A DNA stretch of 64,000 nucleotides. Origin: Patescibacteria group bacterium (GTDB lineage: Bacteria; Patescibacteriota; Patescibacteriia; UBA9570). The stretch is taken from positions 66,178 through 130,177 of the forward strand of contig JBAYIY010000002.1 in assembly GCA_041665365.1 (NCBI GenBank). Direction: 5' to 3'. The stretch's first letter is position 1, and each line of letters begins with the position of its first letter. The notes beneath the pieces were generated by a model that saw only the letters and a list, made by a program, of their open reading frames with translations, had not been told where the DNA came from and ran no database searches. Made by a program: the position numbers and the translations under genes. Shown one piece after another: positions 3,984 to 19,545 of the stretch.

Positions 3984-4220
3984 TTAACTAATAAGTTTCA
4001 ATTTATCAGTCCGTCGTAATTGTTTAATTTGAATTTCGCGTCTTAACGCACTGCCTTTCGTGCGACACCGCTGCGTATACACAATCCGCTCGACCGGGTG
4101 GGATCGGGTATAGCGACTAGCCGTACCGGCCTGATGCCTGGCCCACCGTTTGGGTAAATCATTTGTGATACCGGTATACAAACTACCGTCTAAACAGCAA
4201 AGAATGTAGACAGTATACAT
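3984..4220 (-). CDS. Small GIY-YIG nuclease family protein (UPF0213/YhbQ-like)
   Basis: 78 aa: MYTVYILCCLDGSLYTGITNDLPKRWARHQAG...YTR... is the GIY-YIG motif set seen in E. coli YhbQ. Its ATG lies 4 nt after the tRNA-Glu 3' end, and there is no Shine-Dalgarno sequence. Confidence 0.75.
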   Translation of the reverse strand: MYTVYILCCLDGSLYTGITNDLPKRWARHQAGTASRYTRSHPVERIVYTQRCRTKGSALRREIQIKQLRRTDKLKLIS

Positions 4221-4224
4221 AAAG

Positions 4225-4296
4225 TAGCCCCACGGGGAATCGAACCCCGATTTGAGCGCTGAGAACGCTCCGTCCTAACCGTTAGACGATAAGGCC
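4225..4296 (-). tRNA. tRNA-Glu (anticodon CTC)
   Basis: Sense strand: GGCCTTATCGTCTAACGGTTAGGACGGAGCGTTCTCAGCGCTCAAATCGGGGTTCGATTCCCCGTGGGGCTA. The D-arm (TCGTCTA...AGGAC) matches the tRNA-Glu architecture. The anticodon stem is GAGCG/CGCTC, the loop is TTCTCAG, and the T-loop is TTCGATT. The acceptor stem has three G-U pairs. No CCA is encoded. Confidence 0.75.
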
Positions 4297-12901: not shown

Positions 12902-15562
12902 CTATACCGTTTTGGCTACTCGCAGAAAACAGTACTTACTGACCTCAATAATAACCAATTCCACCACAATTAGAGCCATAACAATCCCCCAAGCCTGATA
13001 ATCCAGAGCTTTAGTGCCAAAATAGACCTGTAGAACCGGCACATAGATCGGCAAAGCTTGAGCTATCACTCCCACACAAAACGATACAATTAACCATGGA
13101 TTGCGCAGCAGATTGGTTTGATAAATCATGTGTCGCAGTGAGCGCAAACTGAACATAAATAATAAAGAATCTATCCCCATCGATAAGAAAATAACCGTAC
13201 GCGCATAAGCTAGATCATTGGTTAGATGATACATATAAGCAAACAAAGCCACATTAAATAATCCGGTGATCAAACTAACCACTACGATTAATGTTTTAAC
13301 TTCGGTATCAAGAATGGTATTGTGATGCCCACGTGGTTGCTCTAACATGTTTTGCGGTTCTTTTGGTTCCTGTGTCATGGCTAAACTCGGAAAAGAATCA
13401 TTTACAATATTGATCCATAAAATCATCGCGGCCGTCACTGGCACGGGCAGACCAATTAACAAAGTAACTACCAACAACAACACCTCCGTAAAACTGTCTG
13501 ATAATAAATACAAGACGGTTATTTTAATGTTATCAAAAATACCTCTACCCTCTTCGACAGCCGCTACGATGCTACTAAAGTCATCATCTAAAATAACCAT
13601 ATCAGCGGTTTCTTTAGCCACATCAGAACCAGACCCAAGGGCGACTCCAATATCGGCGGCTTTAATGGCTGGAGCATCATTAATGCCATCTCCCGTCATG
13701 GCTACCACCATGTCATGGCTCTGCCAGGCTTGCACGATGCGCAATTTGTGTTGTGGTGTGACCCGGGCATACACATTAACATTGGTGACACGTTGTTTTA
13801 ATTCATACTGTGATAAGGCATCTAACTCCTTACCTTCCATTATATTTTCCGGCTGGCTAACAGCGATGCCTAATTCTTCCGCGACGGCTTTGGCGGTTAA
13901 TTTATGATCACCGGTAATCATCACTAGTTTTATTCCGGCTTGTTTACATTCGGCCACAGTTTGTTTCGCCGTTGGGCGCAGCGGATCTTTAATACCAATA
14001 TAACCCACAAACACCAATTCACTCATCATGTCTGGTGTGATGCTTTTAGCATGACTAGCACAGGGTTTGTAAGCTAAGGCGATAATTCTAAGACCACGCA
14101 CCGATAAGCTTCGAAATTTTGCATCAAATTGCTTCTTTTTTTCTTCAGAGAAATGCATAATCTTTCCGCCATCTAATACTTGTGTACAATTTGCCTCAAT
14201 CACTTCTGGAGCTCCTTTCACATATAACATTCTCCCCTGCGCTTCTCTGTGTAGTGAGGCCATGTATTTAATACTGGAATCAAATGGTATTGTATCAACT
14301 CTTGGCGCCATTTTTTGCAGTTGTTGATAATGTAAACCCGCTTGTGTACCGGCCAATAATAAAGCCCGCTCGGTTAAGTTGCCAGATATCACCCACTCCT
14401 CCACCATATCATCCGGGTTATTTACCATCGCGTCATTACAGAGTACACCCAGGCGCAAAGCAAACATGGTGTCTTTATCAGAATCTGAGGTGAGAATATC
14501 GGTTACTTGCATTTTACCTTCGGTGAGTGTGCCAGTTTTATCCGTACAAATAACATTAGTGGAGCCTAACGTTTCTGCCGCTACTAGTTTTCTAACTAAG
14601 GCTTTACGTTTTAAAATGCGTTGCATCCCGGCCGCTAGAATAATTGTTACCGCAATCGCCAAACCTTCCGGAATCGCCGAGACCGCCACCGCTACAGCCA
14701 CCGTAAACATCTCCACTACACTGTGTAAAACAAAATAACCAAACAAAAATATACCCACAGCGATTAATACCACCATAATGCTCATTTTTTTGGCAAAACC
14801 AGCTAGTTGTAATTGTAATGGTGTCGCATTTTCGTCAGTCTCTTTAATCAATCTGGCTACACCACCCATTTCTGTGTCTAAGCCAGTGTGTACTACCACA
14901 CCACGCGCCGACCCTTTAGTTACAACCGTGCCAGAAAACGCCATGTTCAGACGATCCCCTACAGTAGCATCAGCTTCTAAAATGGCAGTGTGATCTTTTT
15001 TTATTGGTTCGGCTTCACCGGTTAAGGCCGCTTCATTTATTTCAATATCGTCGTGTTCTAATAACCGTACATCGGCTGGCACTTTGTCTCCGGCTGTTAG
15101 TAACACAATATCGCCTGGTACTAATTCCTGTGCGGCCATAACTTGTTCATGACCATCGCGCCACACACGCGCGGATAAAGCAATGACCTGTTGTAAAGCT
15201 TGCAGGCTTGTCTGGGCTTTATATTCCTGAATAAAACCCACGATCACCTGAATGGCTACCGCCGCCGCAATTACCACCGCATCAACTTGTTCGTTTAATA
15301 ACAAGCTAATCAAAGATGCTCCCAACAAAACAAATACCAACGGGCTCTTAAACTGCTCACCTAACACCTCCCACCAATGTTTTAATTTAGCCATTGGTAG
15401 AGTATTAGCTCCAGCCTGGCTGAGACGCAGATTAGCTTGCTTGGTGGTTAAACCAGCCTGGCTCGCCTCAACTGCGGCCAGGGCTTGTTTGACGGTTAAA
15501 GTATAAAATAATTTAGAACCAGCCATGAATGACTCCCACCACAAATAATATAATGCCGCCAA
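12902..15562 (-). CDS. Cation-transporting P-type ATPase (type IIA, Ca2+/Mg2+ family)
   Basis: Contains CTDKTGTLTEGKM (the DKTGT phosphorylation site), TGDGINDAPAIKAADIG and a PEGL motif, with about 10 TM segments. The track start MAALYY may really be MAGSKL at 15526. Confidence 0.9.
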   Translation of the reverse strand: MAALYYLWWESFMAGSKLFYTLTVKQALAAVEASQAGLTTKQANLRLSQAGANTLPMAKLKHWWEVLGEQFKSPLVFVLLGASLISLLLNEQVDAVVIAAAVAIQVIVGFIQEYKAQTSLQALQQVIALSARVWRDGHEQVMAAQELVPGDIVLLTAGDKVPADVRLLEHDDIEINEAALTGEAEPIKKDHTAILEADATVGDRLNMAFSGTVVTKGSARGVVVHTGLDTEMGGVARLIKETDENATPLQLQLAGFAKKMSIMVVLIAVGIFLFGYFVLHSVVEMFTVAVAVAVSAIPEGLAIAVTIILAAGMQRILKRKALVRKLVAAETLGSTNVICTDKTGTLTEGKMQVTDILTSDSDKDTMFALRLGVLCNDAMVNNPDDMVEEWVISGNLTERALLLAGTQAGLHYQQLQKMAPRVDTIPFDSSIKYMASLHREAQGRMLYVKGAPEVIEANCTQVLDGGKIMHFSEEKKKQFDAKFRSLSVRGLRIIALAYKPCASHAKSITPDMMSELVFVGYIGIKDPLRPTAKQTVAECKQAGIKLVMITGDHKLTAKAVAEELGIAVSQPENIMEGKELDALSQYELKQRVTNVNVYARVTPQHKLRIVQAWQSHDMVVAMTGDGINDAPAIKAADIGVALGSGSDVAKETADMVILDDDFSSIVAAVEEGRGIFDNIKITVLYLLSDSFTEVLLLVVTLLIGLPVPVTAAMILWINIVNDSFPSLAMTQEPKEPQNMLEQPRGHHNTILDTEVKTLIVVVSLITGLFNVALFAYMYHLTNDLAYARTVIFLSMGIDSLLFMFSLRSLRHMIYQTNLLRNPWLIVSFCVGVIAQALPIYVPVLQVYFGTKALDYQAWGIVMALIVVELVIIEVSKYCFLRVAKTV

Positions 15563-15716
15563 AGGCTAAGACAAAACAACCCACTATACAGGCTAACCAA
15601 ATATAATAAGCCTGTCCGACTTTAGCTAAATACAAACTTGGCGTTTCCACTAATGGATTATGCGCAAACGGCCGCTTTAACCACTTAATAATAGTTGTTT
15701 TCAAGAAACTAAGCAT
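15513..15716 (-). CDS. Small two-TM membrane protein of unknown function, overlapping the P-type ATPase start
   Basis: 67-aa ORF with two hydrophobic helices. Its 3' end overlaps the 5' end of the ATPase gene. Confidence 0.4.
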   Translation of the reverse strand: MLSFLKTTIIKWLKRPFAHNPLVETPSLYLAKVGQAYYIWLACIVGCFVLAFGGIILFVVGVIHGWF

Positions 15717-15768
15717 GAAGACAGTATAGCATTTTTTTTATAAGGCTACACTTTTGACTTCGGGTGAT

Positions 15769-16908
15769 TTATTTTTTGCCCTGAAAGCGCTCTGTGTTGC
15801 TTTGTCTAATTTTATCAATACGCTGCTTAATAAATGGATATTGCTCATAACGAACCATAACAATATTAAGACTAGCATCCAATATCTCTGGGCTCAGAGG
15901 AGGGTTAATAGAATCCACCGCTACCTCCAATGCCGTTAAATGTTTTTCCAAACTTGGCTCAAGCGGATTGAATTCATTGATTTTATCACTAATGTTCATC
16001 ATATCTGTCATTATTTTGGCCGACAAATATCGCACGTTACTATTTTTTTGTTCATTGGCCAAGTCTAATCGACCAGTTTCCTCAAAATATTTCACTGCGA
16101 TCGAACCGTTGTCTTCCGTGTGAACAGTGCCAAAACTAGTTTCAAAAGAATCACCAATTGAAGCTTCACCTTTATAATATTTTCCTAAAGCAACACCTAA
16201 TACTTCTGTTTGCTTGGAGAAAAAAACACGTTCCTTATTATCACTAACTACTTCATACATCCAACCACTTAAATGATATAAATTTATAATCGTTAATAAA
16301 CGTGACTGTGACAAATCGTCACCATGAACTGATTTTGGCCGACCACTGTATATATAATCCAATATTTGCTCTGGGGTTTTTTCAGCGAACCTTTGCTTAT
16401 GCAGAAAGTCATTCAACGCTACCATCATGTCACTGTCACCTGTCATACTTGTCAACCAGGACTTATCGACTATGTCTTTACATAAAGCATCAAAATCCTG
16501 TTCAATAAAATTTACTCCACCATCAAACGTTCCTATCAAATGGGTTATATATCGTTCCGCTTTTTCTCTAGGCCATTCTTTTGTCTTCTGTACATCCAAA
16601 ATTTGTATTATTTTCAACCATAAGGAAAATTCCTTATATTTATCTTCATTGTTAAAAGCCACCGCACTATAATATAGAAGATCACCTTGCCCATCTTTCA
16701 TAAAAACTTTTTGCAAACGTTCAGAATCTTCTTTATCAAAAATTTGCTCTAAGTAGTGGTTAATAACTTCTTGTCTTTGTGCTTCTATTCTCTGCACTTC
16801 TTCTCTTGTGACTGGAACTGCATGTATTGGTACCGGATCTACTGCTAACGCATCTGGTTCACCAGCTAAAGCTATACCTATAAGCCCTTTTTTGAATAAT
16901 TCACGCAT
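15769..16908 (-). CDS. Hypothetical protein
   Basis: 379-aa ORF with no recognisable motif. Confidence 0.5.
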   Translation of the reverse strand: MRELFKKGLIGIALAGEPDALAVDPVPIHAVPVTREEVQRIEAQRQEVINHYLEQIFDKEDSERLQKVFMKDGQGDLLYYSAVAFNNEDKYKEFSLWLKIIQILDVQKTKEWPREKAERYITHLIGTFDGGVNFIEQDFDALCKDIVDKSWLTSMTGDSDMMVALNDFLHKQRFAEKTPEQILDYIYSGRPKSVHGDDLSQSRLLTIINLYHLSGWMYEVVSDNKERVFFSKQTEVLGVALGKYYKGEASIGDSFETSFGTVHTEDNGSIAVKYFEETGRLDLANEQKNSNVRYLSAKIMTDMMNISDKINEFNPLEPSLEKHLTALEVAVDSINPPLSPEILDASLNIVMVRYEQYPFIKQRIDKIRQSNTERFQGKK

Positions 16909-16944
16909 ATTGGATACACATTAATCGATAGCTTAATATTAGTC

Positions 16945-17053
16945 TAGTGGGCTTGCCCACCGCAGTCCACCGTCGCCGAAGGCTGTGGCGGACGAAGGTG
17001 GGACGTGCTGGACCATCCTCCGCTACACTGCGGTTGGTAAATTTGAACCAGCG
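16945..17053 (-). repeat. Partial duplicate of the tRNA-Lys 3' portion plus its 52-nt hairpin trailer (distal copy B), carrying a 28-nt insertion in the T-loop
   Basis: 16945-17012 matches 17326-17393 at 67 of 68 positions. After a 28-nt insert (17013-17040), 17041-17053 (ATTTGAACCAGCG) matches the tRNA-Lys T-arm (17393-17405). Confidence 0.8.
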
Positions 17054-17292
17054 CCATGAACCTTGGTTTGTATAAAACGTTTTCCAGAACCTGTTTTAAG
17101 GTATTTTTCAAACTCAGCCGCTTCTAACCGAGTACGAAATGCAGCATAAAATATTAACTCGAATGGTCGACGATATTTTGTGGCTAATTCATAACCTTGA
17201 TTATGCCGTTGTAAACGTTCTTCAATATTATTGGTCATGCCCGTATATAGCATATGATCTTTTAGACTACGCAATACGTAAGTATAATGCAT
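17023..17292 (-). CDS. Small GIY-YIG nuclease family protein (UPF0213-like), paralog of 3984..4220
   Basis: 89 aa: MHYTYVLRSLKDHMLYTGMTNNIEERLQRHNQG contains the GIY-YIG motifs. Its C-terminal codons run into the partial tRNA copy. Confidence 0.75.
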   Translation of the reverse strand: MHYTYVLRSLKDHMLYTGMTNNIEERLQRHNQGYELATKYRRPFELIFYAAFRTRLEAAEFEKYLKTGSGKRFIQTKVHGAGSNLPTAV

Positions 17293-17325
17293 AACAATTT
17301 TTATTCTTAAAAATTCATTGCACTG

Positions 17326-17393
17326 TAGTGGGCTTGCCCACCGCAGTCCACCGTCGCCGAAGGCTGTGGTGGACGAAGGTGGGACGTGCTGGA
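17326..17393 (-). repeat. Proximal copy A: tRNA-Lys 3' acceptor/T-stem plus the 52-nt structured trailer
   Basis: Direct repeat of 16945-17012. The trailer has a 7-bp stem GTCCACC/GGTGGAC enclosing a TTCG tetraloop hairpin, followed by GTGGG-CAAG-CCCAC. Confidence 0.8.
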
Positions 17394-17451
17394 TTTGAAC
17401 CAGCGACCATTTGCTTAAAAGGCAATTGCTCTACCCCTGAGCTAACGTCCC
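17380..17451 (-). tRNA. tRNA-Lys (anticodon TTT)
   Basis: Sense strand GGGACGTTAGCTCAGGGGTAGAGCAATTGCCTTTTAAGCAAATGGTCGCTGGTTCAAATCCAGCACGTCCCA is near-identical in architecture to E. coli tRNA-Lys(UUU). The anticodon loop is CTTTTAA. Confidence 0.85.
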
Positions 17452-17469
17452 GAAAACGTGGCTATTCTA

Positions 17470-18138
17470 TCAACTGGCCTGATCACTGTCAACGCGTTGT
17501 GCCGATGCTTTACTTTGACGATGCATCAGAAAAAATTTTACTCCAGCTGGCAACAGAGAAATAATAATAATGCCAATAACCATTATACTAAAATTTTTCT
17601 GCACAATGGGTATATTTCCAAAAAAGAATCCCCCACCCACCGCGGCTAGAATCCATAAGCCAGAACCAGCTAGCGAATATGCTAAAAATCTATCATAGGA
17701 AAATTTTCCAATCCCAGCTACAAACGGAGCAAAGGTGCGGACAATGGGAATAAATCTGGCAATAATCACCGTTTTTCCACCGTGTCTGCGGTAGAATTCT
17801 TGGGTTTCATGTAAGTGTTTTTCGTTAATCCAACGAATTTTTTTTCCGGAAAACAGACTAGGGCTCAATCTTCGTCCAATCCAATAATTAACATTATCTC
17901 CTAAAAACACCGCCACAAACAATAAGCCAGCTACTAGCCAAATATTTAAATCCCCCCGGGCGGACAGCGCTCCTAAGGTGAATAATAAAGAATCTCCCGG
18001 TAAGAAAGGAGTGACAACTAACCCAGTTTCACAGAACACAACCACAAACACCAAGGCGTAGGTCCAAGCCCCATAATGAGCAATAATAACACTTAATTGT
18101 TCATCAATATGTAAGAAAAATTCAACTATTGTTAACAT
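17470..18138 (-). CDS. DedA/SNARE-associated family membrane protein
   Basis: ETGLVVTPFLPGDSLLF, RFIPIVRTFAP and multiple TM helices are typical of DedA. Confidence 0.8.
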   Translation of the reverse strand: MLTIVEFFLHIDEQLSVIIAHYGAWTYALVFVVVFCETGLVVTPFLPGDSLLFTLGALSARGDLNIWLVAGLLFVAVFLGDNVNYWIGRRLSPSLFSGKKIRWINEKHLHETQEFYRRHGGKTVIIARFIPIVRTFAPFVAGIGKFSYDRFLAYSLAGSGLWILAAVGGGFFFGNIPIVQKNFSIMVIGIIIISLLPAGVKFFLMHRQSKASAQRVDSDQAS

Positions 18139-18201
18139 AGCCTGTCAATTGTACAGCAGAATTGACTTCCGTCAAAACGTGCGTATACTATATCTCCACC
18201 T

Positions 18202-19545
18202 ATGGAGCAACTCCCCCCACATAATCTAGAAGCCGAACAAGCCTGTTTAGGCTCATTAATGATCGATAAAGATGCCATTATTAAGGTGGCTGATATTGTG
18301 GCACCAGACGATTTTTATAGTGATAAACACCGGCTTATCTATCAGGCCATGCAAGATATTTATTCCCAGCATGATCCGATGGATATTGTTAGTATTACCA
18401 ATCGCCTCACTGAAATGGGGAGTATTGAAGTGGTTGGTGGTAGAAGCTATTTAGTGTCTCTCACGGCGATGGTGCCATCGGCCGCTAATATTGTCAGTTA
18501 TGCTAACATCGTTCAGCGCAAAGCCACCTTGCGGCGATTGATTAAAGCCGCCCATCAGATTTTACAAACCGCTTATGATGATTCCACCGATGATGTGAGT
18601 AGCCAATTAGATAATTCTGAACAGGCGTTGTTTGCGGTATCACAAAAACATCTGCGGCAAAACTTCACCCCCATCAGTAGTATCTTAGCCGATGCTTTTG
18701 ATCGGATAGATGAAATCCATAAAGATTCAGGCAAGCTCCGGGGTATTCCCAGTGGCTATATCGATTTAGATAACAAGCTGGGTGGTTTACAAAAATCCGA
18801 TTTGATTATTTTAGCCGCTCGCCCATCGATGGGTAAAACCTCATTGGCGTTAGACATCGCTCGCCATGTGGCTGTTAATGAAAGAATCCCAGTGGGTATT
18901 TTTAGTTTGGAAATGAGTCGCGATCAATTAGTGGATCGGCTACTTTGTGCTCAAGCCGGTGTAGATTTATGGAAAATGCGCACCGGTAAACTATCCGATG
19001 CCCCCGGCCATGATGATTTTCCCAGAATCGGACAAGCGATGGGTGTCTTATCTGAAGCACCAATTTATATTGATGATAGTCCAATGAGTAATATTATGGA
19101 GATTCGCACCAAAGCCAGACGTCTACAAATGGAACATGGTTTAGGCTTGATTGTATTGGATTATTTGCAGTTAATGGAAGGGCGCTCATCCAATAGCGAT
19201 AATCGTGTGCAAGAAATTGCTGAAATCTCCCGCTCACTGAAAGGTTTAGCACGTGAGTTAGGGGTGCCGGTTTTGGCTTTATCTCAGTTATCTCGGGCGG
19301 TAGAAAACCAAACTGTTCCAATTCCAAAACTGGCTCATTTACGTGAATCTGGCTCTATCGAACAAGATGCCGATGTGGTAATATTTATTTACCGGGAAGA
19401 ATATTATAAGCAAGATACTGACCGTAAACACATTGCCGATGTGATTATAGCCAAACATCGTAATGGTCCCACCGGCAAAGTCGAATTATTCTTCGACATT
19501 GAAAAAGCCAGCTTTAAAAATTTAGAAAAAACATTTAACGACTAA
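18202..19545 (+). CDS. dnaB: Replicative DNA helicase DnaB
   Basis: The N-terminus HNLEAEQACLGSLM, a Walker A motif (ARPSMGKTSLAL) and RecA-like motifs are present. Confidence 0.9.
   Translation: MEQLPPHNLEAEQACLGSLMIDKDAIIKVADIVAPDDFYSDKHRLIYQAMQDIYSQHDPMDIVSITNRLTEMGSIEVVGGRSYLVSLTAMVPSAANIVSYANIVQRKATLRRLIKAAHQILQTAYDDSTDDVSSQLDNSEQALFAVSQKHLRQNFTPISSILADAFDRIDEIHKDSGKLRGIPSGYIDLDNKLGGLQKSDLIILAARPSMGKTSLALDIARHVAVNERIPVGIFSLEMSRDQLVDRLLCAQAGVDLWKMRTGKLSDAPGHDDFPRIGQAMGVLSEAPIYIDDSPMSNIMEIRTKARRLQMEHGLGLIVLDYLQLMEGRSSNSDNRVQEIAEISRSLKGLARELGVPVLALSQLSRAVENQTVPIPKLAHLRESGSIEQDADVVIFIYREEYYKQDTDRKHIADVIIAKHRNGPTGKVELFFDIEKASFKNLEKTFND

Follow-up and report, generated by a model that had tools for sequence, protein, structure and literature searches.

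A small GIY-YIG nuclease cassette beside a tRNA-Lys gene of a Patescibacteria group bacterium and its relatives behind tRNA and tmRNA genes of many phyla

Here we describe a candidate mobile element at a tRNA-Lys gene of a Patescibacteria group bacterium, found in a window of 64,000 nucleotides (nt) that comprises positions 66,178 to 130,177 of contig JBAYIY010000002.1 (assembly GCA_041665365.1); coordinates are those of the window unless a contig is named. In it, a gene for a very small GIY-YIG nuclease lies between two copies of the tRNA 3′ end and of the structured 52-nt trailer that follows the tRNA. We regard it as probable, with real room for doubt, that this is a minimal, promoter-less selfish cassette lodged at the 3′ side of tRNA-Lys in a candidate phyla radiation (CPR) bacterium, and that it arose by an insertion or duplication triggered by the nuclease and assisted by homology to the tRNA. 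Read from the tRNA outward, it consists of a regenerated tRNA 3′ end, a 5′ module, a nuclease gene of 79 codons, a 3′ hairpin and a displaced piece of tRNA 3′ end; the first stem of the 5′ module uses the tRNA's own 3′ end, and the displaced piece starts at the junction of T-loop and T-stem. On sequence grounds, the cassette is a member of a large family that occupies tRNA and transfer-messenger RNA (tmRNA) genes in many phyla. An earlier note, made from the letters of the window, had proposed a small mobile GIY-YIG element at this tRNA; the finding is wider in scope than that note supposed, and different in detail.

ARAGORN finds two tRNAs in the window, tRNA-Glu at 4224-4296 (minus strand) and an intact tRNA-Lys(UUU) at 17378-17451 (minus strand). 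The tRNA-Lys had been drawn from 17451 to 17380, and Rfam agrees (17380-17451, 72.9 bits), but ARAGORN carries its end to 17378. CCA is not encoded, the discriminator A being followed by CCT. Behind the tRNA come, in order, the structured 52-nt trailer, the 89-residue GIY-YIG open reading frame (ORF; 17023-17292, minus strand; Pfam PF01541, E = 4e-17), after which T-arm, acceptor 3′ strand and trailer appear again. A repeat search gives this duplication as two direct repeats, one of 68 nt (16945-17012 against 17326-17393, one mismatch) and one of 13 nt (17041-17053 against 17393-17405, identical), which makes one mismatch over 81 nt in all. Copy A, delimited by the repeat families and the sequence, is a contiguous block of 80 nt (17326-17405, minus strand) that holds the T-stem 5′ strand and T-loop (17393-17405), the T-stem 3′ strand, the acceptor 3′ strand and the 52-nt trailer. 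In copy B, an extra 28 nt (17013-17040) break up this block, exactly between nucleotide 60 of the T-loop and nucleotide 61 of the T-stem. The first piece of copy B, the T-stem 5′ strand and T-loop CGCTGGTTCAAAT (17041-17053, minus strand), is 100% identical to 17393-17405 and falls within the C-terminal extension of the GIY-YIG ORF; its second piece (16945-17012, minus strand), with one mismatch to copy A, consists of the displaced tRNA 3′ fragment CCAGCACGTCCCA (17000-17012) and a second trailer module, for which we use the name M1. Within the 64 kb of the window there are exactly two occurrences of the 52-nt trailer, where shuffles predict 0, and no further copy of it or of related modules is found there; nor did the repeat search of the region find terminal inverted repeats. 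An assembly artefact is ruled out as the source of the repeat because an independent metagenome contig of the same organism (L001) carries the same arrangement, with one mismatch to the window in 6,994 nt. The duplication of the tRNA 3′ end and trailer around the GIY-YIG gene, which the earlier note had claimed, is thus borne out by the repeat search, ARAGORN, Pfam and L001 alike, as is its statement that copy B differs by one substitution and a 28-nt stretch in the T-loop.

That DNA has been inserted here is shown by relatives in which the site is empty. Metagenome contigs were scanned for the 3′ half of the tRNA-Lys, and three contigs with the same tRNA-Lys(UUU) were found. On L092 and L095 the tRNA-Lys is followed, after 70 and 36 nt respectively, by a 67-residue membrane ORF and, beyond it, a P-type ATPase, the same two genes that form the native downstream flank in the window (15513-15716, minus strand, and 12902-15562); both contigs are without trailer, without tRNA fragment and, by hmmsearch, without a GIY-YIG gene. 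L002, the closest relative with the gene (74% protein identity to the window GIY-YIG), reads tRNA-Lys, trailer, GIY-YIG, T-arm piece, hairpin, tRNA 3′ fragment, a diverged second trailer and the 67-residue ORF. The tRNA-Lys site is accordingly polymorphic for presence and absence, filled in the window and L002 and empty in L092 and L095. Because the empty sites and the filled L002 share the site and the downstream genes, the comparison shows about 0.4 kb, the trailer included, to be inserted DNA. The trailer, which the earlier note had taken for the tRNA's own, belongs to the cassette instead, since it is absent from the empty sites and shares its grammar with cassettes of distant phyla. That note had also considered that all relatives might carry the duplicated arrangement and the trailer might be generic; empty sites do exist among them, and tRNAs that are not adjacent to such a gene are without the motif. 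Its suggestion of a tRNA-targeting insertion without an integrase is supported by the same empty sites together with the lack of any recombinase. The L002 contig starts inside the tRNA-Lys (L002 1-60), so that the comparison with it covers the downstream side, the upstream DedA/VTT synteny lying beyond the contig.

The insertion is old. A fresh target-site duplication, to which the arrangement had been likened, is rejected at the window locus, the cassette being as diverged from L002 (72.7% nucleotide identity) as are the flanking genes (65-78%); the insertion must therefore be older than the split between the two genomes. In the window the two copies, A and B, share 99% identity; in L002 the displaced copy has decayed, and the segments are too short for phylogenetic placement. 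Copy B also carries the T-stem variant of its own genome, G:C in the window and A:T in L002. Since A and B are 99% alike, yet the cassette is only 72.7% identical between genomes, and since each copy B bears its own genome's T-stem variant, the near-identity of the copies requires later homogenisation, by repeated gene conversion or re-duplication. For the region these comparisons yield a clear annotation, an old but maintained insertion and not a tRNA trailer signal.

The conserved SLX1/UPF0213-type domain of the nuclease takes up codons 1-79 (17056-17292), and codons 80-89 (17026-17055) continue into the T-arm fragment and the hairpin. Because homologues stop at about residue 78-79, these last ten codons are a read-through of the tRNA fragment, just as had been proposed. 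The invariant residues of the family alignment (Y5, Y16, G18, R26, H30 and E62) are all present in the window protein. Searched against PDB, the family profile matches 1zg2 (UPF0213 BH0048) at 3.5e-16, 1ywl at 1.6e-10 and SLX1 chains at 5e-7 to 1e-4, and no UvrC or I-TevI chain is among its matches. Prokaryotic Slx1-like proteins form a minimal-domain branch of the GIY-YIG superfamily (PMC1564403). By these matches the protein has a minimal SLX1/UPF0213-type (YhbQ-like) GIY-YIG domain that lies outside the branch of UvrC and the homing endonucleases. Neither Pfam nor the family alignment recognises a second or DNA-binding domain, the protein being made up of the 79 conserved residues and the 10-residue tail only, and the description "homing-endonuclease-like" in the earlier note does not fit it. 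NCBIfam, PADLOC and PHROGs give no match for the GIY-YIG proteins. Between the window and L002 the ratio of nonsynonymous to synonymous divergence (dN/dS) over the 79-codon core is 0.10 (dS 1.86), a value that shows purifying selection on the nuclease gene, by which it is maintained. In the ten read-through codons dS is 0.46, against 1.86 in the core, and this low value points to constraint at the nucleotide level or to homogenisation. Many database members of the family carry 20-60 extra N-terminal residues (100-140 residues against the 78-residue core), which are probably start-codon miscalls through the structured spacer or the tRNA.

The 5′ module M1 (17328-17379, minus strand), which is the 52-nt trailer and is defined by sequence, folds and cross-phylum grammar, runs from the tRNA end CCCACC through TTCG, a hairpin GTCCACC..GGTGGAC and CTGCG to GTGGG-CAAG-CCCAC; within it, GGTGGG is complementary to the tRNA-Lys 3′ end and CCCAC repeats that end. 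Of the trailer hairpins that had been drawn from the letters, the 7-base-pair (bp) stem stands, and GTGGG-CAAG-CCCAC is formed as a hairpin in the full-length fold, but the UUCG tetraloop is not clean: as RNA, the trailer folds into a 7-bp stem around a small GCC/GGC hairpin (z = -3.1), and this inner hairpin has a 3-bp stem and a UUC loop. In trailer folds (z-scores -3.1 and -4.2), GGUGGG, the 5′ strand of the second hairpin, pairs with the tRNA 3′ end CCCACC instead. An A/T-rich leader of 33 nt (17293-17325, minus strand) separates the module from the ATG, the repeat identity ending at 17326. The 28 nt between T-loop nucleotide 60 and T-stem nucleotide 61 of copy B (17013-17040, minus strand) form, by sequence and fold, the hairpin CCA-A-CCGC-AGTGTA-GCGG-AGGA-TGG, whose loop holds the TAG stop of the GIY-YIG ORF. 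Seven differences separate this hairpin from that of L002, four of which make up two compensatory pair changes (C-G to T-A and A-T to C-G). An analogous hairpin lies inside the T-loop of the displaced fragment in L006, which with its T-loop, 33-nt hairpin and T-stem 3′ strand is laid out as this locus is; in L016, L075, L077 and L078 such a hairpin immediately precedes the fragment. The stretch that had been read as an insertion into the T-loop is present, then, but it resembles the hairpin that commonly follows the ORFs of the family, here in a variant form. An Rfam search of the window region and ten family loci (E<=0.5-1) returned only tRNA and tmRNA, the trailer and hairpins being without a family. 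Copy B was considered as a tRNA-like processing substrate and rejected, having no 5′ acceptor partner in the folds. The sole difference between the window and L001, G at 16957 and C at L001 position 3367, lies in the GTGGG-CAAG-CCCAC hairpin of copy B; it may reflect variation within the population, in the copy that is less constrained, or an error of assembly caused by the repeat.

A strong sigma-70-like promoter, TTGACA-17-TAGAAT with TG (17464-17492, minus strand), lies just upstream of the tRNA-Lys; with 11 of 12 matches it is the best in 15400-18300. Between the tRNA-Lys and the GIY-YIG ORF there is no comparable promoter and no terminator-like site, and the promoter upstream of the tRNA likely drives the whole transcript of tRNA plus cassette.

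Linkage to tRNA and tmRNA genes, a grammar of modules, displaced fragments and tandem arrays are all shown by the comparison of loci as traits of a whole family. The homologue alignment was used to collect 80 loci from one-genome-per-species contigs, and their hosts fall into about 15 phyla-level lineages: Patescibacteria, Bacteroidota, Alpha- and Gammaproteobacteria, Omnitrophota, Verrucomicrobiota, Margulisbacteria, Marinimicrobia, Acidobacteriota and others. A tRNA on the same strand ends at most 500 nt upstream of the gene in 48 of the 80 loci, and with tmRNA detection added a tRNA or tmRNA does so in 57; L024 has a further tmRNA by Rfam. Chance alone would give, on a rough estimate, about 1%. 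Among the loci without such a link, eight have less than 300 nt of upstream DNA. Serine is the commonest isotype upstream, followed by Pro, Gln, Tyr, Lys, Ala, Asp, Val, Ile, Leu, Cys, Arg and Met. Nearest-neighbour proteins agree in tRNA type in 25 of 42 cases, where chance would give 13.5%; this would favour horizontal spread, but the comparison is confounded by host phylum. The nearest neighbours include cross-phylum pairs of up to 77% identity, and target switches are also seen. A profile search (E<=1e-10) yielded 7,518 clusters at 50% identity. The phage and plasmid collections each gave 3 weak matches; the family is rare in both, and carriage by phages or plasmids is rejected. The idea of a minimal GIY-YIG element, put forward for this one locus, gains from the survey, in which the same small gene stands behind tRNA or tmRNA in many phyla, often with a displaced fragment, repeats or arrays. 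We found no account of small bacterial GIY-YIG genes behind tRNA or tmRNA in the literature, of which our coverage is incomplete, so that a prior description is possible; the cassette group is large and apparently undescribed. Many family loci lie at contig ends, consistent with repeats breaking assemblies there; besides L002, several contigs of the family have an end no more than about 300 nt from the cassette.

The spacers between tRNA and ATG are built alike across phyla. With X′ for the tRNA 3′ end and X for the complement of that end, they read X′, TTCG, a small hairpin or CTAAAG, CT(T/A)CG, X, a loop of 4-5 nt and X′, often with a second hairpin directly before the ATG, and the window trailer conforms to this grammar. 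Of 76 hits to a 16-nt core, CTTCGCTAAAGCTTCG or its reverse complement, 53 lie upstream of the ATG and 9 downstream, in either case at a distance of at most 400 nt. The stems that flank the core are complementary but variable, with >=4 bp in 44 of the 76 (2.9 with permuted flanks) and 23 distinct stems. In 31 of 42 loci the spacer contains a complement of the end of that locus's own tRNA; permutation gives 16.5 +/- 2.6. Within the same loci, the module signature was found at 2 of 41 tRNAs without a following GIY-YIG gene, against 15 of 51. A generic tRNA processing signal is therefore rejected as the nature of the trailer, which is absent from the empty-site tRNA-Lys genes and from nearly all tRNAs without GIY-YIG. 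In L005 (2780-3000, Parcubacteria) the spacer contains runs of 2 and 4 tandem short hairpin modules.

Such structured parts could be understood as chiefly an RNA-level device, in which modules, 3′ hairpin and tRNA-like fragment serve the processing, stability or regulation of a tRNA-mRNA co-transcript and the duplication has been selected for that service. The compensatory changes in the 28-nt hairpin between window and L002, the variable stems around a conserved core, the spacer stem built on the tRNA 3′ end, the lowered synonymous divergence in the read-through tail, the single strong promoter upstream of the tRNA and the trailer fold z-scores are all in keeping with this. We nevertheless think it quite unlikely as the chief explanation. 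The 16-nt core occurs in both orientations on one strand, which fits recognition at the level of DNA or hairpins equally well; copy B, without a 5′ acceptor strand, cannot form a tRNA-like substrate for RNase P or Z; and there is no match to an Rfam family. A device of this kind would fail on its own to account for empty sites, arrays and spread over many phyla, and it is compatible with a mobile cassette rather than an alternative to it.

Downstream of the ORF, many loci have a hairpin of the same type and then a fragment of the 3′ end of the upstream tRNA. In 11 of 57 loci, such an own-tRNA fragment after the ORF exceeds a cross-locus null at its 99th percentile. The displaced fragments are the last 14-24 nt of the tRNA, from the T-loop or the T-stem 3′ strand onward, and in L044, L062 and L012 they directly adjoin the native flank. 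Exact flanking repeats of 30-55 nt are seen at L030, L046, L053, L067 and L080, that of L067 starting in the anticodon loop; over the family, flanking repeats vary from 14 to 127 nt and in content, often including or consisting of non-tRNA trailer modules. Head-to-tail arrays are present at L018 (five units of about 361 nt), L004, L022 and L030. The L018 array (1-1990, from a Bacteroidales metagenome-assembled genome) begins at the contig end, and one of its five near-identical units is apparently frameshifted.

Repeats and arrays also invite the thought of local segmental duplication without true mobility. In that case a resident, domesticated GIY-YIG gene would be co-transcribed with tRNAs, a unit of tRNA 3′ third, trailer and ORF would have been duplicated in tandem with a junction between ORF end and T-arm, and the second unit would then have been mostly lost; the nuclease would at most stimulate amplification, as the phage nuclease SegB does, and might serve the host in tRNA dosage or R-loop repair. 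The end of the ORF does abut tRNA position ~48-60, as a duplication junction would, tandem arrays are common in the family, SegB yields tandem units of tRNA plus segB through microhomology, and both the vertical inheritance of the cassette between window and L002 and the purifying selection on the protein suit a resident gene. We hold this explanation to be unlikely, as it fails on the presence of the gene behind more than 13 tRNA isotypes and tmRNA in about 15 phyla-level lineages, on the empty sites in relatives, on the cross-phylum nearest neighbours at up to 77% identity, and on the displaced fragments that directly adjoin native flank in L044, L062 and L012. It accounts for the repeat at the window locus, but not for the origin of the cassette.

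Direct repeats of a tRNA 3′ end recall integrase islands as well. Integrase islands and prophages make use of the 3′ ends of tRNA and tmRNA genes, restore an intact gene, leave behind direct repeats taken from the tRNA 3′ end and cross over in the T-loop or anticodon loop. Here, too, there are tRNA-3′ direct repeats with an intact tRNA regenerated at one end, T-loop and anticodon-loop crossover points, and use of tmRNA, so that one might take the repeats for the attL and attR of an island whose recombinase has been deleted or acts in trans, the GIY-YIG gene being the surviving cargo of a decayed or hitch-hiking element. This seems very improbable indeed. Between the repeats of the window there is only the 89-residue ORF, the neighbours being VTT/DedA, DnaB and an orphan without a Pfam match, and no recombinase is found; and the decay of unrelated islands would not leave one and the same tiny gene, identically oriented and placed, in 57 of 80 loci. 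The insert is a single gene in about 0.4 kb, the repeats (14 to 127 nt) often include or consist of non-tRNA trailer modules, and arrays of identical units of about 360 nt are not island-like. A transposon is rejected, there being no transposase, no terminal inverted repeats and flanking repeats of 14-127 nt rather than a short duplication of fixed length.

Returning to the selfish cassette, we propose the following course of events. The gene would be transcribed by read-through from the tRNA promoter, with the hairpins bounding and protecting the mRNA. The nuclease would then break the DNA of a tRNA or tmRNA gene at or near the T-loop, which it would find by sequence or by hairpin structure. 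Repair would use an occupied locus as template and so copy the cassette, with portable homology supplied on the left by the tRNA body and on the right by the short 3′ fragment of the tRNA. A working tRNA would thereby be regenerated and the old 3′ end displaced, and repeated insertion or unequal recombination would give arrays and keep copies A and B homogenised. Such a model would explain the regenerated tRNA, the fragment that starts at about nucleotide 61, the many isotypes and tmRNA, the arrays (a regenerated site can be hit again, or units can multiply through unequal recombination) and the homogenisation.

Several observations weigh against this account. The protein is a bare catalytic domain without a recognisable DNA-binding domain, and the model does not explain how it finds its site; nor does it provide immunity for the intact upstream tRNA, which keeps a normal T-loop and should stay a target. 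The cassette has apparently been inherited vertically since the split between the window and L002, diverging like its neighbours, and gives no sign of recent movement, and the rarity of members in phages and plasmids leaves no evident vector for horizontal spread. A recognisable displaced fragment is present in only about 20-30% of family loci, and the lengths and boundaries of the repeats, which range over 14-127 nt and sometimes comprise the trailer module alone or, in one case, begin in the anticodon loop, fit no single simple mechanism. Complementarity of the spacer to the tRNA end, finally, is not predicted by a plain homing model. Models based on a short target-site duplication, on fold-back or on hairpin-capped ends were tried for a spacer that holds both a complement and a second copy of the tRNA end, and none gave a clean fit.

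Because site finding, the toleration of the intact tRNA and the complement and copy in the spacer are left unaccounted for, there is room for recognition by structure or by a guide. The larger claim that may be built on this is tentative and, as we see it, rather doubtful: that the family is a widespread, unrecognised minimal mobile element, in which an SLX1-like GIY-YIG nuclease is directed into tRNA and tmRNA genes by nucleic-acid structure or by a guide. The substrate might be the tRNA gene's own hairpins, such as the T-arm, in single-stranded DNA; or the hairpin modules of the cassette, whose stems complement or copy the tRNA 3′ end, might act as a guide or as attC-like sites. If this reading were true, thousands of genomes would possess a novel means by which DNA is targeted and moved.

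The kind of element is already known, from nuclease-driven mobile ORFs at conserved genes and from the association of SegB with tRNAs, and the bacterial cassette family is a variant of it. SegB of phages T4 and T6 is a free-standing GIY-YIG homing endonuclease encoded in the tRNA gene cluster (PMC2330249; PMC13096335). Its cleavage sites, of the motif RAWTSGAAC, lie within tRNA genes, the motif being complementary to the T-loop consensus; the enzyme drives the formation of tandem units of tRNA-Tyr plus segB, which depends on homologous recombination and proceeds through microhomology that the tRNA shares with the 3′ end of segB (PMC13096335); segB is significantly co-localised with tRNAs of many isotypes (PMC13096335; PMC2330249). 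In both systems a GIY-YIG gene stands beside tRNA genes, the T-loop motif of SegB matches the T-loop/T-stem breakpoint of the displaced fragments described here, and the recombination between tRNA and ORF 3′ end resembles the junction of ORF end and T-arm and the arrays. SegB, with about 220 residues, is about three times longer than the protein of the cassette. It is a phage protein with DNA-binding regions from the homing-endonuclease clade, whereas the cassette protein is of the 79-residue SLX1/UPF0213 type, has no PHROGs match, is chromosomal in CPR and other bacteria and is rare in phages. Moreover, the cassettes always lie downstream of the tRNA and are co-oriented with it, and hairpin modules have not been reported for segB loci.

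A second parallel comes from fungal mitochondria, in which mobile ORFs (mORFs) make gene hybrids of Allomyces atp6 and of Glomus atp6, atp9, cox2 and nad3 (PMC3630166). Their order is the 5′ part of the host gene, an inserted replacement 3′ end, an endonuclease ORF of LAGLIDADG or GIY-YIG type and the displaced native 3′ end; the ORF may have no stop of its own or share its frame with adjoining sequence, and close relatives have empty sites (PMC3630166). The same succession of gene, replacement 3′ end, endonuclease ORF and displaced 3′ end is found in the window and in L002. The mORFs, however, encode full-size endonucleases and target protein genes of organelles, their inserted 3′ end is clearly foreign, whereas the copies here are near-identical (window) or too short to test, and shared hairpin modules have not been reported for them. 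With homing endonucleases of I-TevI and Seg type the cassette shares the filled/empty polymorphism at a conserved target, but it lacks the joined DNA-binding domain. Integron cassettes are similar in logic only: they too are promoter-less single-ORF units, arranged head to tail behind one strong promoter and bounded by hairpins with a conserved structure, a few core bases and variable stems. Here, by contrast, there is no IntI and no attI, and the cargo is always the nuclease gene itself.

Linkage to tRNAs does not extend to all small GIY-YIG genes. The window contains a second GIY-YIG ORF (3984-4220, minus strand; 78 residues; Pfam E=1.8e-17) of another subfamily, which starts 3 nt after the tRNA-Glu(CUC) (4224-4296, minus strand) and has neither spacer module nor flanking repeat. 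None of five sampled relatives of this subfamily is linked to a tRNA, all five lying 3-22 nt behind protein genes without a nearby tRNA, and the proposition that every small GIY-YIG gene is tRNA-linked is rejected on this account. Because 0 of these 5 relatives are tRNA-linked, the linkage looks to be specific to the subfamily with the motif FEKYLKTGSG. The position of the second gene may be one case of insertion directly after a transcribed gene. Both tRNAs of the window thus have a GIY-YIG gene behind them; further GIY-YIG ORFs start 2 nt after a tRNA-Met at L067 (3614-3950) and lie just downstream of the first cassette at L032 (3290-3595), and several GIY-YIG lineages may share a habit of sitting at tRNA 3′ ends.

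If the family picture is true, thousands of genes annotated "GIY-YIG nuclease family protein" would be selfish cassettes of about 0.4 kb rather than housekeeping repair enzymes, living off tRNA promoters and colonising tRNA and tmRNA genes without an integrase. This concerns the 7,518 clusters, many of them in CPR/Patescibacteria, Bacteroidota and Proteobacteria, and would give a function and a context to a large orphan family. It would likewise extend the recently demonstrated relationship between SegB and tRNAs from phages to cellular chromosomes and to another GIY-YIG clade, account for the small repeats and the contig breaks that metagenome assemblies show at tRNA genes, and provide a nuclease of very small size whose natural target, the T-loop region or the 3′ end of a tRNA, is defined and conserved and is tracked by the hairpin stems.

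Directly after copy B in the window comes an orphan ORF of 379 residues (15769-16908, minus strand, from the ORF list), which has no match in Pfam, NCBIfam, PADLOC or PHROGs and is absent from L002 and from the empty-site contigs. It stands to copy B as the GIY-YIG gene stands to copy A; it may have inserted separately into this hot spot, which makes its membership in the element uncertain.

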